The notes below the pieces were generated by a model, which did no database searches, was not told the DNA's origin, and saw only the letters and a program-made list of their open reading frames with translations. 64,000 bases of DNA. Source: Escherichia coli (GTDB lineage: Bacteria > Pseudomonadota > Gammaproteobacteria > Enterobacterales > Enterobacteriaceae). The translations under genes and the position numbers were made by a program. The first letter of the stretch is position 1, and the number at the start of each line of letters is the position of its first letter. Positions 21,212 to 51,988 of the stretch are shown one piece after another. The stretch is from NCBI RefSeq assembly GCF_003790525.1, contig NZ_CP033635.1; one strand, 5' to 3'.

Positions 21212-21255
<44 letters not shown>

Positions 21256-25870: not shown

Positions 25871-25940
25871 GCCGGGTAGGTCTGATAAGACTGTATCAGG
25901 CATCATGGCCGGATGCGGCGTTAACGCCTTATCCGGCCAC
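25871..25940. repeat. Paired REP elements (BIME-like) between ypfH and ypfN
   Basis: gccgggtaggtctgataag...ggccggatgcggcgttaacgccttatccggccac: two REP-type units in inverted orientation. Confidence 0.7.
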
Positions 25941-37174: not shown

Positions 37175-37217
37175 ACAAAATCCCAGATGCGCCCCTAAAA
37201 AGCGCACAGACTGTCTC

Positions 37218-37255
37218 CTCGCCCCTCTGGGGAGAGGGTTAGGGTTAGGGGAACA
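37218..37255. repeat. G-rich 38-bp intergenic repeat, copy 1 (CTCGCCCCTCTGGGGAGAGGGTTAGGGTTAGGGGAACA)
   Basis: Near-identical (36/38) to a second copy at 50611-50648; contains the CCCTCT-GGGG-AGAGGG hairpin; sits between ypfG and the tktB 3' end. Confidence 0.6.
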
Positions 37256-37276
37256 TACAGCATCCGGCGATCACCA

Positions 37277-39280
37277 TCAGGCACCTTTCACTCCCAGCAC
37301 CTTATGCGCTTTTGCCACAATATTCTCGGCGGTAAAGCCAAAGAACGGGAACAGCTTATCCGCCGGAGCAGATTCCCCGTAACCCGTCATCCCGACAATT
37401 GCCCCTTTCAGACCAACATACTTGTACCAGTAATCGGCGATGCCTGCTTCCACCGCTACGCGAGCCGCAACGTTAGAAGGCAACACCGACTCCCGATATT
37501 CCTCATCCTGGGCGTCGAAAATATCGGTCGAGGGCAGGGAAACTACGCGTACATTGCGACCTTCTCCCGCTAATTTCTCTGCCGCTTGCAGGGTGATTTC
37601 CATCTCTGAACCGGTGGCAATCAAAATAATATCTGGCTTACCGCCGCTGTCTTTCAACACATAACCACCACGAGCAATCTCTTTAACCTGATCCGGCGTA
37701 CGTTCCACCTGGGCCAGATTCTGCCTGGAGAGGATCAGTGCCGTCGGTCCGTTGTGGCGCTCAACCGCCAGCTTCCAGCCCACCGCTGCTTCCACCTGAT
37801 CGCACGGTCGCCAGGTGCTGAAATTTGGCGTTAAGCGCAGACTGGCCAGTTGCTCAACAGCCTGGTGCGTAGGACCATCTTCGCCCAGGCCAATTGAGTC
37901 GTGGGTATAAACCATAATCTGCCGCGCTTTCATCAGTGCCGCCATCCGCGCGGCGTTACGGGCGTATTCAACAAACATCAGGAACGTCGCGGTATACGGC
38001 ACAAAGCCGCCGTGGTGCGCAATGCCGTTGGCGATAGCGGTCATGCCAAATTCACGCACCCCGTAGTGAATGTAGTTGCCCGCCGGATCTTCCTTCAGCG
38101 AAACAGAACCTTTCCAGATGGTCAGGTTGCTGGGAGCCAGATCCGCCGAACCGCCGAGCAGCTCCGGTAGCATAGGCCCGTAAGCGTTAAGCGTATTTTG
38201 CGAAGCCTTACGGGTAGCGATTTTCGCCGGATTCGCCTGCAACTCATTGATATATTTCTGAGTCGTTTTCTCCCAGTCCTTCGGTAAACCACCGCTCATC
38301 CGACGGGTAAACTCTTCTGCCAGTTGCGGATGAGCCTTTTTATAGGCGGCAAACTTCTCATTCCAGCTCTGCTGCGCTTTTTCGCCTTTTTCGCGGGCAT
38401 CCCAGGCGTGATAAATCTCTTTAGGGATCTCAAATGGCGGATGGTGCCAGCCCAGTTTTTGCCGTGCCAGCGCCACTTCTTCTTCCCCCAGTGGTGCGCC
38501 GTGCGCCTCTTCCTTACCTGCTTTATTCGGCGAACCAAAGCCAATCACCGTACGGCAGATAATCAGCGACGGCTTATCTTTCACGCTTTGCGCTTCAAGG
38601 ATCGCTTCCTTCACCGCCTGCGGATCGTGGCCGTCGATCTCGTGGATCACATGCCAGTGATAGGCTTCAAAACGTTTTGCTGTATCGTCGGTAAACCAGC
38701 CTTCGGTTTCACCGTCGATGGAAATACCGTTGTGATCGTAAAAACCAATCAGCTTGCCCAGTCCCAGCGTGCCCGCCAGCGAACAGACTTCGTGGGAAAT
38801 ACCTTCCATCAGGCAGCCGTCGCCCATAAACACATAGGTGAAGTGATCGACAATTTCATGATCTGGCTGGTTAAACTGCGCCGCCAGCGTACGCTCTGCT
38901 ATCGCCAGCCCGACGGCGTTCGCCAAACCTTGTCCAAGTGGACCGGTGGTGGTTTCAACACCAGGCGTATAGCCGATTTCCGGGTGACCAGGGGTTTTCG
39001 AATGCAACTGACGAAAGTTCTTCAGTTCTTCCAGCGGCAGGTCGTAACCGGTCAGATGCAGCAAACTGTAGAGCAGCATCGACGCGTGACCGTTGGAAAG
39101 AATAAAGCGGTCGCGATCATACCAGGTTGGGTCGGTAGGATTATGTTTAAGAAAATCGTTCCACAGCACTTCGGCAATATCAGCCATGCCCATCGGCGCG
39201 CCGGGATGACCAGAATTGGCTTTTTGTACCGCATCCATACTGAGTGCGCGAATCGCATTGGCAAGGTCTTTTCGGGACAT
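37277..39280 (-). CDS. tktB: Transketolase 2
   Basis: Track ORF 37277-39343; the ATG at 39280 ([31 protein letters not shown]) has a GGAGTG RBS; 667 aa. Confidence 0.95.
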
Positions 39281-46759: not shown

Positions 46760-46865
46760 TCACCCTGTGTGACGTCGATTCGGGCGTCACGCTCTCTCCT
46801 TTTTCATTTTACCTTCTGCGGAGGGTAGGGGGAGCTTTTACCTGAAATACGCCACGGAGGCGGGT

Positions 46866-47164: not shown

Positions 47165-48568
47165 ATGAATCAACAGGATATTGAACAGGTGGTGAAAGCG
47201 GTACTGCTGAAAATGCAAAGCAGTGACACGCCGCCCGCCGCCGTTCATGAGATGGGCGTTTTCGCGTCCCTGGATGACGCCGTTGCGGCAGCCAAAGTCG
47301 CCCAGCAAGGGTTAAAAAGCGTGGCAATGCGCCAGTTAGCCATTGCTGCCATTCGTGAGGCAGGCGAAAAACACGCCAGAGATTTAGCGGAACTTGCCGT
47401 CAGTGAAACCGGCATGGGGCGCGTTGAAGATAAATTTGCCAAAAACGTCGCTCAGGCGCGCGGCACACCAGGCGTTGAGTGCCTCTCACCACAGGTGCTG
47501 ACCGGTGACAACGGCCTGACCCTGATTGAAAACGCGCCCTGGGGCGTGGTGGCTTCGGTGACGCCTTCCACTAACCCGGCGGCAACCGTAATTAACAACG
47601 CCATCAGCCTGATTGCCGCGGGCAACAGCGTCATTTTTGCCCCGCATCCGGCGGCGAAAAAAGTCTCCCAGCGGGCGATTACGCTGCTCAACCAGGCGAT
47701 TGTTGCCGCAGGCGGGCCGGAAAACTTACTGGTTACTGTGGCCAATCCGGATATCGAAACCGCGCAACGTTTGTTCAAGTTCCCGGGTATCGGCCTGCTG
47801 GTGGTGACCGGCGGCGAAGCGGTAGTGGAAGCGGCGCGTAAACACACCAATAAACGTCTGATTGCCGCAGGCGCTGGCAACCCGCCGGTAGTGGTGGATG
47901 AAACCGCCGACCTCGCCCGTGCTGCTCAGTCCATCGTCAAAGGCGCGTCTTTCGATAACAACATCATTTGTGCCGACGAAAAGGTACTGATTGTTGTTGA
48001 TAGCGTAGCCGATGAACTGATGCGTCTGATGGAAGGCCAGCATGCGGTGAAACTGACCGCAGAGCAGGCGCAGCAACTGCAATCGGTGTTGCTGAAAAAT
48101 ATCGACGAGTGCGGAAAAGGCACCGTCAGCCGTGACTGGGTTGGTCGCGATGCGGCGAAAATCGCGGCGGCAATCGGCCTTAAAGTTCCGGAACAAACGC
48201 GACTGCTGTTTGTAGAAACCACCGCAGAACATCCGTTTGCCGTGACCGAACTGATGATGCCGGTGCTGCCCGTCGTGCGCGTCGCCAACGTGGCGGATGC
48301 CATTGCGCTGGCGGTGAAACTGGAAGGCGGTTGCCACCACACGGCGGCAATGCACTCGCGCAATATCGAGAACATGAACCAGATGGCGAATGCCATTGAT
48401 ACCAGCATTTTCGTTAAGAACGGACCGTGCATTGCCGGGCTGGGGCTGGGCGGGGAAGGCTGGACCACCATGACCATCACCACGCCAACCGGTGAAGGGG
48501 TAACCAGCGCGCGGACGTTTGTCCGTCTGCGTCGCTGTGTATTAGTCGATGCGTTTCGCATTGTTTAA
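47165..48568 (+). CDS. eutE: CoA-acylating acetaldehyde dehydrogenase
   Basis: 467-aa aldehyde-dehydrogenase-family ORF with N-terminal BMC-targeting-like segment. Confidence 0.9.
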   Translation: MNQQDIEQVVKAVLLKMQSSDTPPAAVHEMGVFASLDDAVAAAKVAQQGLKSVAMRQLAIAAIREAGEKHARDLAELAVSETGMGRVEDKFAKNVAQARGTPGVECLSPQVLTGDNGLTLIENAPWGVVASVTPSTNPAATVINNAISLIAAGNSVIFAPHPAAKKVSQRAITLLNQAIVAAGGPENLLVTVANPDIETAQRLFKFPGIGLLVVTGGEAVVEAARKHTNKRLIAAGAGNPPVVVDETADLARAAQSIVKGASFDNNIICADEKVLIVVDSVADELMRLMEGQHAVKLTAEQAQQLQSVLLKNIDECGKGTVSRDWVGRDAAKIAAAIGLKVPEQTRLLFVETTAEHPFAVTELMMPVLPVVRVANVADAIALAVKLEGGCHHTAAMHSRNIENMNQMANAIDTSIFVKNGPCIAGLGLGGEGWTTMTITTPTGEGVTSARTFVRLRRCVLVDAFRIV

Positions 48569-48578
48569 GGAGTAACCG

Positions 48579-49415
48579 ATGGCGCACGATGAACAATGGC
48601 TCACCCCACGTCTGCAAACGGCGGCAACGCTGTGTAACCAGACGCCCGCCGCGACGGAATCTCCGCTGTGGCTGGGGGTGGATCTGGGCACCTGCGATGT
48701 GGTGTCGATGGTTGTCGACCGCGACGGTCTGCCGGTGGCGGTATGCCTCGACTGGGCCGATGTGGTCCGCGACGGCATCGTCTGGGATTTCTTCGGTGCG
48801 GTCACCATTGTTCGTCGCCATCTCGACACCCTCGAGCAGCAATTCGGTCGCCGTTTTAGCCATGCGGCGACCTCTTTTCCTCCAGGTACGGACCCGCGTA
48901 TTTCCATCAACGTGCTGGAGTCTGCCGGACTGGAAGTGAGCCATGTACTGGATGAGCCAACCGCAGTCGCGGATCTGCTGCAACTGGACAACGCCGGTGT
49001 AGTGGATATCGGCGGTGGCACTACTGGTATTGCCATCGTGAAAAAGGGCAAGGTGACGTACTCGGCGGATGAAGCGACCGGCGGACATCACATCTCTCTG
49101 ACTCTCGCCGGAAATCGTCGTATTTCGCTGGAAGAGGCAGAGCAGTACAAGCGCGGTCACGGTGAAGAGATTTGGCCCGCGGTGAAACCGGTGTACGAAA
49201 AAATGGCGGACATTGTCGCCCGGCATATTGAAGGGCAGGGCATTACGGATTTATGGCTGGCGGGCGGCTCTTGTATGCAACCGGGCGTGGCGGAACTGTT
49301 TCGCAAACAATTTCCGGCGTTACAGGTGCATTTACCGCAGCACAGTTTGTTTATGACCCCGCTGGCGATCGCCAGTAGCGGGCGAGAGAAAGCGGAGGGG
49401 CTATATGCAAAATGA
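48579..49415 (+). CDS. eutJ: Ethanolamine-utilisation chaperonin-like protein (actin/Hsp70 fold)
   Basis: 278-aa ORF. Confidence 0.9.
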   Translation: MAHDEQWLTPRLQTAATLCNQTPAATESPLWLGVDLGTCDVVSMVVDRDGLPVAVCLDWADVVRDGIVWDFFGAVTIVRRHLDTLEQQFGRRFSHAATSFPPGTDPRISINVLESAGLEVSHVLDEPTAVADLLQLDNAGVVDIGGGTTGIAIVKKGKVTYSADEATGGHHISLTLAGNRRISLEEAEQYKRGHGEEIWPAVKPVYEKMADIVARHIEGQGITDLWLAGGSCMQPGVAELFRKQFPALQVHLPQHSLFMTPLAIASSGREKAEGLYAK

Positions 49416-50592
49416 ATTGCAGACCGCGCTCTTTCAGGCGTTCGATACCCTGAATCTGCAACGGGTAAAAACATTTAGCGTTCCACCGGTGACGCTTTGC
49501 GGTCCGGGCGCGGTGAGCAGTTGTGGGCAGCAAGCGCAAACGCGTGGGCTGAAACATCTGTTCGTGATGGCAGACAGCTTTTTGCATCAGGCAGGGATGA
49601 CCGCCGGGCTGACACGTAGCCTGGCCGTTAAAGGTATCGCCATGACGCTCTGGCCATGTCCGGTGGGCGAACCATGCATCACCGACGTGTGTGCAGCCGT
49701 GGCGCAGTTGCGTGAATCAGGCTGTGACGGGGTGATTGCGTTTGGCGGCGGCTCGGTGCTGGATGCAGCAAAAGCCGTGGCGTTGCTGGTGACGAACCCG
49801 GATAGCACGCTGGCAGAGATGTCAGAAACCAGCGTTCTGCAACCGCGCCTGCCGTTGATTGCCATTCCGACTACCGCCGGAACCGGCTCTGAAACCACCA
49901 ACGTAACGGTGATTATCGATGCGGTGAGCGGGCGTAAGCAGGTGTTAGCCCATGCCTCGCTGATGCCGGATGTGGCGATTCTCGACGCCGCATTGACCGA
50001 AGGTGTGCCGTCGCATGTCACGGCGATGACTGGCATTGATGCGTTAACCCATGCCATTGAAGCGTACAGCGCGCTGAACGCCACACCATTTACCGACAGC
50101 CTGGCGATTGGCGCCATTGCGATGATTGGTCAATCGCTGCCGAAAGCGGTGGGCTACGGTCACGACCTTGCCGCGCGCGAGAGCATGTTGCTGGCTTCAT
50201 GTATGGCGGGAATGGCGTTTTCCAGTGCGGGGCTTGGGTTGTGCCACGCGATGGCGCATCAGCCAGGGGCGGCGCTGCATATTCCGCACGGTCTGGCGAA
50301 CGCTATGTTGCTGCCAACGGTAATGGAATTTAACCGGATGGTTTGTCGTGATCGGTTTAGTCAGATTGGCCGGGCGCTGAGAACTAAAAAATCCGACGAT
50401 CGTGACGCTATTAACGCGGTAAGTGAGCTGATTGCGGAAGTCGGGATTGGTAAACGACTGGGCGATATTGGTGCGACATCTGCGCATTACGGCGCATGGG
50501 CGCAGGCCGCGCTGGAAGATATTTGTCTGCGCAGCAACCCGCGTACCGCCAGCCTGGAGCAGATTATTGGTCTGTATGCTGCGGCGCAATAA
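49405..50592 (+). CDS. eutG: Iron-containing alcohol dehydrogenase
   Basis: 395-aa Fe-ADH-family ORF; 11-nt overlap with eutJ. Confidence 0.9.
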   Translation: MQNELQTALFQAFDTLNLQRVKTFSVPPVTLCGPGAVSSCGQQAQTRGLKHLFVMADSFLHQAGMTAGLTRSLAVKGIAMTLWPCPVGEPCITDVCAAVAQLRESGCDGVIAFGGGSVLDAAKAVALLVTNPDSTLAEMSETSVLQPRLPLIAIPTTAGTGSETTNVTVIIDAVSGRKQVLAHASLMPDVAILDAALTEGVPSHVTAMTGIDALTHAIEAYSALNATPFTDSLAIGAIAMIGQSLPKAVGYGHDLAARESMLLASCMAGMAFSSAGLGLCHAMAHQPGAALHIPHGLANAMLLPTVMEFNRMVCRDRFSQIGRALRTKKSDDRDAINAVSELIAEVGIGKRLGDIGATSAHYGAWAQAALEDICLRSNPRTASLEQIIGLYAAAQ

Positions 50593-50610
50593 AAGTGTAC
50601 GGACAGTCCC

Positions 50611-50648
50611 CTCGCCCCTTTGGGGAGAGGGTTAGGGTGAGGGGAACA
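50611..50648. repeat. G-rich 38-bp intergenic repeat, copy 2 (CTCGCCCCTTTGGGGAGAGGGTTAGGGTGAGGGGAACA)
   Basis: 36/38 identical to 37218-37255; followed by partial inverted copies (ccctcacccc at 50674-50683, gtgaggg at 50701-50707) in the 169-bp eutG-eutH spacer. Confidence 0.6.
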
Positions 50649-50761
50649 GAGTCGCTCCGGTGCAAACAATTACCCTCACCCCGGTCCCTCGGCTTCCAGA
50701 GTGAGGGAAAAACCCACTTTCAGCATTGGCAATAAATAACAACTAACAGGGAGTAAAGGCG

Positions 50762-51988
50762 ATGGGAATTAACGAAATCATCATGTACATCATGATGTTC
50801 TTTATGCTGATAGCTGCCGTAGACAGGATCCTGTCGCAGTTCGGCGGTTCTGCTCGTTTCCTCGGTAAGTTCGGTAAAAGTATCGAAGGATCCGGCAGTC
50901 AGTTCGAAGAAGGCTTTATGGCAATGGGCGCTTTGGGCCTGGCGATGGTTGGTATGACCGCGCTGGCACCTGTTCTGGCCCACGTACTCGGACCGGTGAT
51001 TATCCCGGTTTACGAAATGCTCGGCGCAAACCCGTCAATGTTCGCCGGAACACTGCTGGCGTGCGATATGGGCGGCTTCTTCCTCGCCAAAGAGTTGGCG
51101 GGCGGCGACGTAGCAGCGTGGCTATACTCTGGATTAATTCTCGGGTCGATGATGGGGCCAACGATTGTGTTTTCCATTCCGGTGGCGCTCGGCATTATCG
51201 AACCTTCTGACCGTCGTTATCTGGCGCTCGGCGTGCTGGCGGGCATTGTGACCATTCCGATTGGCTGTATTGCCGGTGGTCTGGTGGCTATGTACTCCGG
51301 TGTGCAGATCAACGGTCAGCCAGTGGAATTCACCTTTGCGCTGATCCTGATGAACATGATCCCGGTACTTATCGTTGCGGTGCTGGTGGCGCTGGGGCTG
51401 AAATTCATCCCGGAAAAAATGATCAACGGCTTCCAGATCTTCGCCAAATTCCTCGTTGCATTGATCACCCTCGGTCTTGCCGCTGCGGTAGTGAAATTCC
51501 TCCTTGGCTGGGAACTGATCCCGGGCCTTGATCCTATCTTTATGGCCCCTGGCGATAAACCCGGTGAAGTGATGCGCGCCATTGAAGTTATCGGCTCGAT
51601 CTCCTGCGTTCTGTTAGGGGCGTATCCGATGGTGCTGCTGCTGACTCGCTGGTTTGAAAAACCGCTGATGAGTGTCGGTAAGGTGCTGAATATGAACAAT
51701 ATAGCGGCAGCCGGCATGGTGGCAACGCTTGCCAACAACATCCCGATGTTTGGCATGATGAAGCAGATGGATACCCGCGGCAAAGTCATCAACTGTGCCT
51801 TCGCCGTTTCCGCTGCTTTCGCCCTGGGCGACCATTTAGGCTTCGCGGCTGCCAACATGAACGCCATGATCTTCCCGATGATTGTCGGCAAGCTGATCGG
51901 CGGCGTCACGGCGATTGGCGTGGCGATGATGCTGGTACCTAAAGAAGACGCGAGCGCGGCTAAAACCGAAGCGGAGGCGCAATCGTGA
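50762..51988 (+). CDS. eutH: Ethanolamine permease/facilitator
   Basis: 408-aa polytopic membrane ORF. Confidence 0.9.
   Translation: MGINEIIMYIMMFFMLIAAVDRILSQFGGSARFLGKFGKSIEGSGSQFEEGFMAMGALGLAMVGMTALAPVLAHVLGPVIIPVYEMLGANPSMFAGTLLACDMGGFFLAKELAGGDVAAWLYSGLILGSMMGPTIVFSIPVALGIIEPSDRRYLALGVLAGIVTIPIGCIAGGLVAMYSGVQINGQPVEFTFALILMNMIPVLIVAVLVALGLKFIPEKMINGFQIFAKFLVALITLGLAAAVVKFLLGWELIPGLDPIFMAPGDKPGEVMRAIEVIGSISCVLLGAYPMVLLLTRWFEKPLMSVGKVLNMNNIAAAGMVATLANNIPMFGMMKQMDTRGKVINCAFAVSAAFALGDHLGFAAANMNAMIFPMIVGKLIGGVTAIGVAMMLVPKEDASAAKTEAEAQS

Follow-up and report, generated by a model that had tools for sequence, protein, structure and literature searches.

The spacer between eutG and eutH in this Escherichia coli genome holds an inverted pair of BoxC repeats, and we are close to certain of both the identity of the element and its family membership. 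What is new here is the distribution of alleles at this site within E. coli and the empty site found in Citrobacter. On the whole, the evidence makes it probable that the BoxC pair, which sits at a hypervariable site, is specific to a lineage and has no dedicated function. Most likely, it is a repeat, neutral or selfish, that took the place of a REP-pair (BIME) repeat and that has at most a passive, REP-like effect on mRNA decay.

The window, by which we mean the whole 64-kb stretch of DNA that was analyzed, covers the eut genes and a second copy of the repeat. In the open reading frame list, the last base of eutG is 50592 and the first base of eutH is 50762, giving a spacer of 169 bp, and the earlier claim of a first-pass annotation that this distance is unlike that at most eut junctions held up. 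It is the longest junction within the operon. With the exception of eutM-eutN, the others overlap or are separated by 45 nt or less, and the only further junctions above 40 nt are eutM-eutN (106 nt) and eutK-eutR (45 nt). The eutM-eutN spacer, at window positions 46760 to 46865, is the second-longest eut junction. The features of the region, and the second copy, are as follows.

49405 to 50592, plus strand: eutG coding sequence, with the stop codon TAA at 50590 to 50592; from the open reading frame list, and annotated as eutG in the identical strain SC516.
50587 to 50593, plus strand: left 7-bp direct repeat CAATAAA, covering the final Gln codon of eutG together with its stop codon.
50594 to 50729, plus strand: insert of 136 bp, the BoxC (PIT/TMECO) inverted pair with flanking conserved sequence, from alignment with other copies.
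50609 to 50644, plus strand: intact type-A BoxC/TMECO motif, CCCTCGCCCC-TTT-GGGGAGAGGG-TTA-GGGTGAGGGG, with a canonical G-quadruplex (G4) motif at 50622 to 50644.
50645 to 50672, plus strand: center of 28 nt between the two units, forming the loop of the predicted long-range stem, with a small GCUCCGGUGC hairpin inside; from folds and alignment.
50673 to 50707, minus strand: decayed type-B BoxC motif, CCCTCACTCTGGAAGCCGAGGGACCGGGGTGAGGG, of which the GGGGTGAGGG end alone is intact, its own hairpin being mostly lost.
50730 to 50736, plus strand: right 7-bp direct repeat CAATAAA, common to the BIME allele of K-12 and other strains.
50748 to 50753, plus strand: eutH Shine-Dalgarno sequence AGGGAG, conserved across all alleles and genera.
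50762 to 51988, plus strand: eutH coding sequence, from the open reading frame list and the annotation in the identical strain SC516.
37198 to 37255, plus strand: second copy within the window, located in the ypfG-tktB spacer and made up of one type-A-like BoxC unit, in which GGGTTAGGGG replaces GGGTGAGGGG.

Positions 50610 to 50647 match positions 37217 to 37254 over 38 nt with 2 mismatches, which confirms that the spacer carries a copy of the 38-bp repeat previously claimed for it, and the similarity reaches 58 nt at 88% identity when 50591 to 50648 is aligned with 37198 to 37255 in the ypfG-tktB spacer. The inverted partial matches described earlier are likewise present, with CCCTCACCCC at 50673 to 50682 (earlier placed at 50674 to 50683, off by one) and GTGAGGG at 50701 to 50707. 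Moreover, GGGTGAGGG at 50635 to 50643 is the exact reverse complement of 50673 to 50681. What the first-pass annotation had missed is that the repeat and the inverted pieces make up a single dispersed element of 136 bp. There is a vanishingly small probability that the spacer similarity and the inverted matches arose from G/C-rich sequence alone. Nothing speaks for such an origin but the modest z-score of the predicted fold, a weak point, whereas a match of this kind occurred 0 times in 100 shuffles and thousands of homologous copies are found across E. coli genomes; a chance origin is refuted by the shuffles and the megablast copies.

BoxC was described as a repeat of 56 bp with about 32 copies (PMC2267715), and it was later renamed as the PIT element, the TMECO triplex motif (Holder et al. 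2015, PMC4666352), and the HPG1/HPG2 G-quadruplex motif (Kaplan et al. 2016, PMC5100583). The motif as defined here is 34 to 37 nt long and consists of a C-tract, a loop of 3 to 4 nt, a G-tract, TTA (type A) or CCG (type B), and then GGGTGAGGG. The unit at 50609 to 50644, CCCTCGCCCCTTTGGGGAGAGGGTTAGGGTGAGGGG, conforms to this definition and is identical to K-12 TMECO nos. 7, 11, and 15. The literature on the BoxC/PIT family reportedly also includes work by Bergler (1992), Bachellier (1996-99), and Hoyne and Maher (2000/2002). A 16-kb part of the window shows 100% identity to E. coli SMS-3-5, SC516, and relatives, and from the 100% match to SMS-3-5 we predicted that the eut copy would lie at NC_010498 2652608-2652573. 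Exactly these coordinates are given for TMECO no. 157 of SMS-3-5 in Table S8 of Holder et al. 2015 (PMC4666352), an entry that is the eut copy and that is listed with no comment on the eut operon. The eutG-eutH copy is thus already known and catalogued, and it is an ordinary dispersed repeat. The site itself is unlike catalogued BoxC sites in being BIME-occupied in most strains, and that occupancy is not mentioned in the published BoxC catalogues. A covariance search with Rfam 15 gave no match in the window at gathering thresholds, and a relaxed search of 50500 to 50850 returned chance-level matches only (E of 0.27 or more).

When the spacer was compared by megablast with 5,426 complete E. coli genomes, the median number of homologous places per genome was 6 to 7 and the maximum was 14. 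All seven BoxC loci that we inspected are intergenic. The eut copy aligned over its full length with six other paired copies, located at cca-bacA, gcvP-ygfF, sstT-alx, recA-recX, fepB-entC, and hrpB-mrcB. The aligned element is about 130 bp long and opens with a short conserved leader, AAAAG.GCACGGAC.GT, after which come the hairpin CCCTCGCCCC-TTT-GGGGAGAGGG, TTA, GGGTGAGGGG, and a center of about 28 nt; the mirror half reads CCCTCACCCC-GG-CCCTCTCCCT-GGAA-GGGAGAGGG. In the published pairs, a type-A unit always stands with an inverted type-B unit (BoxC/TMECO literature), and the eut copy shows the same A+B arrangement, with type A on the plus strand at 50609 to 50644 and the decayed type B on the minus strand at 50673 to 50707, where the CCGGGGTGAGGG end is intact. 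A strict motif search detected the A unit only at eut and both units at gcvP-ygfF, sstT-alx, fepB-entC, and hrpB-mrcB. The eut copy therefore shares with published BoxC/TMECO elements the 36-nt type-A motif and a strictly intergenic location, and it pairs type A with an inverted type B some 28 nt away, like five K-12 BoxC loci, but it departs from typical BoxC pairs in the decay of its type-B unit. It is located inside an operon, 16 nt from a stop codon, for which the comparable K-12 BoxC cases are pstA-pstB and yihS-yihR.

Species-representative genomes were scanned with an EutH query, which returned 50 loci, and 26 other-species spacers were examined. The first-pass annotation had suggested comparison of the spacer with that of another species, and the comparison revealed no conservation of the element: BoxC was absent from the eutG-eutH junction in 26 of the 26 other-species spacers examined, and also from about 93% of E. 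coli. In five Citrobacter genomes the spacer is 27 nt long and reads gcaCAATAAATACACATATGACAGGGAGTGAAGGCTatg, with no repeat and one CAATAAA, and the spacers of Pluralibacter and Yokenella measure 32 nt. The Salmonella diarizonae spacer contains one REP (67 nt), Klebsiella and other Citrobacter spacers contain their own REP types, and E. whittamii and two further Escherichia lineages have BIME units in the spacer. Set beside these spacers, the Escherichia state amounts to an insert plus a 7-bp target duplication. The element-free spacer of 27 nt in Citrobacter indicates that the eut operon functions without BoxC. By the comparison of spacers, the eut element is a lineage-specific repeat insertion and not a conserved part of eut regulation. 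It is of little significance for eut biology, as it is a catalogued dispersed repeat and the operons of other genera work without it.

Within E. coli, the BoxC allele (at least 80% of the insert) occurs in 381 of the 5,426 complete genomes, about 7%, and it is nearly invariant, as the 60 best-matching carriers each show 100% or 98.6% identity. The other E. coli genomes examined have 1 to about 6 REP-pair (BIME) units with exactly the same boundaries. K-12 and B2 strains have a 216-bp spacer with two such units, and the BIME spacer lengths elsewhere are 116 bp (one unit), 315 bp (three), 516 bp (five), and 578 bp (about six), while O157:H7 has a truncated REP pair in a spacer of 99 bp. There are at least seven length alleles of the eut spacer. 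In K-12, B2 strains, E. whittamii, and cryptic Escherichia, the BIME arrays run from 116 to 578 nt between the same boundaries. Every allele is flanked by gcgCAATAAA on the left and CAATAAATAACAACTAACAGGGAGTAAAGGCGatg on the right, and no empty eutG-eutH junction was found among the 5,426 complete E. coli genomes. The REP core (GCCGGATG ... CATCCGGC, with a GTAG/CTAC foot) is absent from the eutG-eutH spacer of the window, and the alternative BIME alleles hold 2 to 11 REP cores. Ordinary REPs of 29 nt, 93% mutually complementary, are present elsewhere in the window at 21222 to 21250 and 25910 to 25938, so this strain has nearby REPs but none in the eut spacer.

We infer that Escherichia probably carried BIME at this site first and that BoxC took its place later, in a minority lineage. 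The two repeats, BIME-2 and BoxC, are alike in being palindromic, GC-rich, multicopy, and intergenic, in occupying exactly the same eut position between the same CAATAAA flanks, and in forming stable RNA hairpins with no U tract. However, their sequences are unrelated, and the number of BIME units varies at eut whereas that of the BoxC allele does not. A common BoxC/BIME origin through a similarity of the BoxC center GCCAGCACCGGTGCGAACAATT to the BIME-2 linker CCAGTGGCGCGGTGCAATT was considered and rejected, as the local alignment was no better than shuffles (p = 0.17-0.5). The BIME allele of eutG-eutH is itself a clear copy-number-variable BIME-2 array within an operon. The junction offers a clean natural case in which two unrelated palindromic repeat families, BoxC and BIME, are alleles of a site that is empty in a sister genus, and it could be useful for finding out how repeats of this kind reach a site and displace each other.

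Exchange between BoxC and REP sequences was also seen at cca-bacA, where strain NT1W25 has a BoxC pair, with no flanking direct repeat around it, and K-12 has a BIME with common boundaries, and at ypfG-tktB, where the window has a single BoxC unit and K-12 a REP in the same place. Since the alternation occurs at these two loci as well, the exchange is a general feature of the two kinds of repeat. In natural isolates, boxC insertions at BIME loci were reportedly described by Bachellier et al. 1997 (Genetics 145:551). Within window positions 37175 to 37300, REP-like arms (CCAGATGCGCC ... CAGCATCCGGCG) flank the BoxC unit, as if it lay inside a REP or had replaced one. The recA-recX spacer of an O145 strain contains a BoxC pair, and K-12 has nothing at that point; the O145 allele is flanked by TTTAATC and TTAAATC, an imperfect duplication of a sequence that is single in K-12. 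The difference at gcvP-ygfF is an indel of about 1 kb that includes ygfF. In the gcvP-bglA region of B2 strains (APEC O1), ygfF and the adjacent BoxC pair are missing together relative to K-12-like strains, and homology breaks exactly after the gcvP terminator (GGCGCCTTTTT), which places the BoxC pair at the edge of the indel. The sstT-alx site has three alleles, in strains including FY10 and 4/1-1: an intact pair, a collapse to a single hairpin, and an unrelated GC-rich insert of about 430 bp. BoxC copies were also found on plasmids, at 9 to 10 places in the genome collection; Holder et al. 2015 (PMC4666352) reported no association of TMECO with plasmids. The copy on plasmid pMTY18781-3 (2572-2610) and the SMS-3-5 chromosomal pair (272.8 kb) both adjoin a glycosyltransferase gene.

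The perfect 7-bp direct repeat around the 136-bp insert, of which the element-free Citrobacter site has a single copy, would fit a MITE-like, non-autonomous mobile element that inserted at the AT-rich CAATAAA after the eutG stop and duplicated its target, as would the arms, which form imperfect terminal inverted repeats, the recA-recX flanks in O145, and the plasmid-borne copies. However, we hold this to be improbable, since the BIME allele has exactly the same duplication and BoxC need not have made it, the cca-bacA pair has no flanking repeat, and the differences at gcvP-ygfF and sstT-alx are larger replacements rather than clean insertions. In addition, the ends of the element vary between copies, and a transposase partner for BoxC is not known. 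The BoxC pair is comparable to MITEs, ERIC/IRU, YPAL, and Correia elements in its size of about 130 bp, its imperfect terminal inverted repeats, its intergenic location, its presumed co-transcription, and its presence/absence polymorphism between strains. It is unlike MITEs in that the loci compared showed no consistent target-site duplication, that it has no known parent insertion sequence, and that its arms are themselves hairpin/triplex motifs. Because both eut alleles carry the same 7-bp CAATAAA duplication and Citrobacter a single copy, BoxC pairs and BIMEs might be interchangeable cassettes with a shared target-duplicating mechanism; a related possibility is selection for a strongly folded RNA after eutG. 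Identical 7-bp flanks around two unrelated repeats leave some room for a common insertion mechanism or for selection of a structured element, but the chance of either is slim. All 5,426 E. coli genomes have kept a repeat at the site. Selection for a structured element is one way to account for this, the other being that no route to deletion exists. If such selection operates, exchanging a REP located 2 nt downstream of the stop for a BoxC stem located 16 nt downstream would adjust both EutG translation and access to the eutH ribosome-binding site in phylogroup D/F strains, which we take SMS-3-5 and similar strains to be.

An extended stem-loop had been proposed for the spacer transcript, and this structural proposal held in the main. 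A stable structure is predicted, comprising a 5' hairpin, CCCUC.CCCC/GGGG.GAGGG, and then a 9-bp long-range stem, GGGUGAGGG/CCCUCACCC, but the energy of the 121-nt core (-51 kcal/mol) is only 1.3 to 1.9 sd better than that of dinucleotide shuffles, a small margin because the composition of the spacer alone folds well. A plus-strand scan of the spacer (50593 to 50761) found no terminator-like or promoter-like sites, the terminator-like matches of the scan being solely inside eutH. There is no U tract after either stem, and transcription should consequently read through the spacer. As summarized in Holder et al. 2015 (PMC4666352), which draws on Hoyne and Maher, the repeat family acted neither as promoter nor as terminator and left RNA polymerase unaffected. 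In the fold model, the eutH Shine-Dalgarno sequence is partly paired with the decayed right arm of the BoxC element, and its predicted unpaired probability is 0.43 to 0.47 in BoxC alleles, compared with 0.71 in BIME alleles and 0.65 in the empty Citrobacter spacer. The first stem begins 16 nt after the eutG stop in the BoxC allele, and the REP begins 2 nt after it in the BIME allele. REP elements reportedly stabilize upstream mRNA (Newbury 1987; Liang, Rudd, and Deutscher 2015, Mol Cell 58:431), and the latter authors are said to have found lower translation of the upstream gene where a REP lies within about 15 nt of the stop codon. Under this rule, the shift from 2 to 16 nt suggests that the BoxC swap could matter for EutG.

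It is doubtful, however, that a functional stem-loop sets the expression of eutS-G relative to eutH-R through mRNA processing, 3' exonuclease protection, or partial occlusion of the eutH ribosome-binding site. The stability of the predicted fold would favor such a role but exceeds that of shuffles by the small margin given above, and the stems have no following U tract in a family for which terminator and promoter activity was, according to that summary, absent. The lower predicted accessibility of the eutH Shine-Dalgarno sequence in BoxC than in BIME alleles, the different distances of the stem from the eutG stop, and the reported REP effects on upstream mRNA stability and translation all point toward a function, and some strongly structured repeat is kept in every Escherichia allele; yet most E. 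coli and every other species sampled lack the BoxC element itself, Citrobacter operons manage with 27 nt, and the decayed right arm argues against purifying selection on the structure. A candidate regulatory role of the eut BoxC element is thus unsupported, and a quantitative effect on eutG or eutH, by way of mRNA decay or EutG/EutH ratios, may exist. In the account that we prefer, with BoxC as a lineage-specific occupant, an intact type-A unit faces a decayed type-B unit across the 28-nt center, and this pair would have replaced the BIME allele within E. coli. A point against the account is that such a swap would have had to leave both CAATAAA copies as they were. The element would be transcribed within the eut polycistron, its RNA would fold into the hairpin and the 9-bp long-range stem, and polymerase would read through it, there being no U tract. 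At most, it would then passively obstruct 3' exonucleases in the manner of the REPs that it replaced, and presumably it is not a dedicated eut regulator. The eut alleles provide a natural experiment on whether a structured repeat downstream of a stop codon adjusts the expression of genes in the same operon.

A process at the DNA level is a possibility to which we give some weight, though well short of that given to a lineage-specific occupant with no dedicated function. While the DNA is being replicated or transcribed, the element might transiently adopt an intrastrand triplex or a G-quadruplex and so be a hotspot of deletion, replacement, and copy-number change, with allele diversity as the consequence. 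Triplex and G4 formation as single-stranded DNA in vitro was demonstrated for the identical sequence (Holder et al. 2015, PMC4666352; Kaplan et al. 2016, PMC5100583), and the latter study described a G4/hairpin switch. TMECO loci are far more rearranged than control intergenic regions, but no sign of a triplex came from DMS footprinting in vivo, and the DNA took the duplex form when double-stranded (Holder et al. 2015, PMC4666352). The length alleles at eut and the three states of the sstT-alx pair would suit a hotspot, as would the finding that the 64-kb window has just three canonical G4 motifs and that the two BoxC copies supply two of them. However, length variation at eut resides mostly in BIME alleles, and the BoxC allele is nearly invariant among the best-matching carriers. 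The RNA energy model also prefers the hairpin (-22.1) to the G4 (-12.6), and a G-quadruplex in the RNA was rejected, as the minimum-energy fold was unchanged with G4 energies enabled. The third canonical G4 motif of the window, GGGCTGGGGCTGGGCGGGG, lies at 48437 to 48455 inside the eutE coding sequence, on the sense strand.
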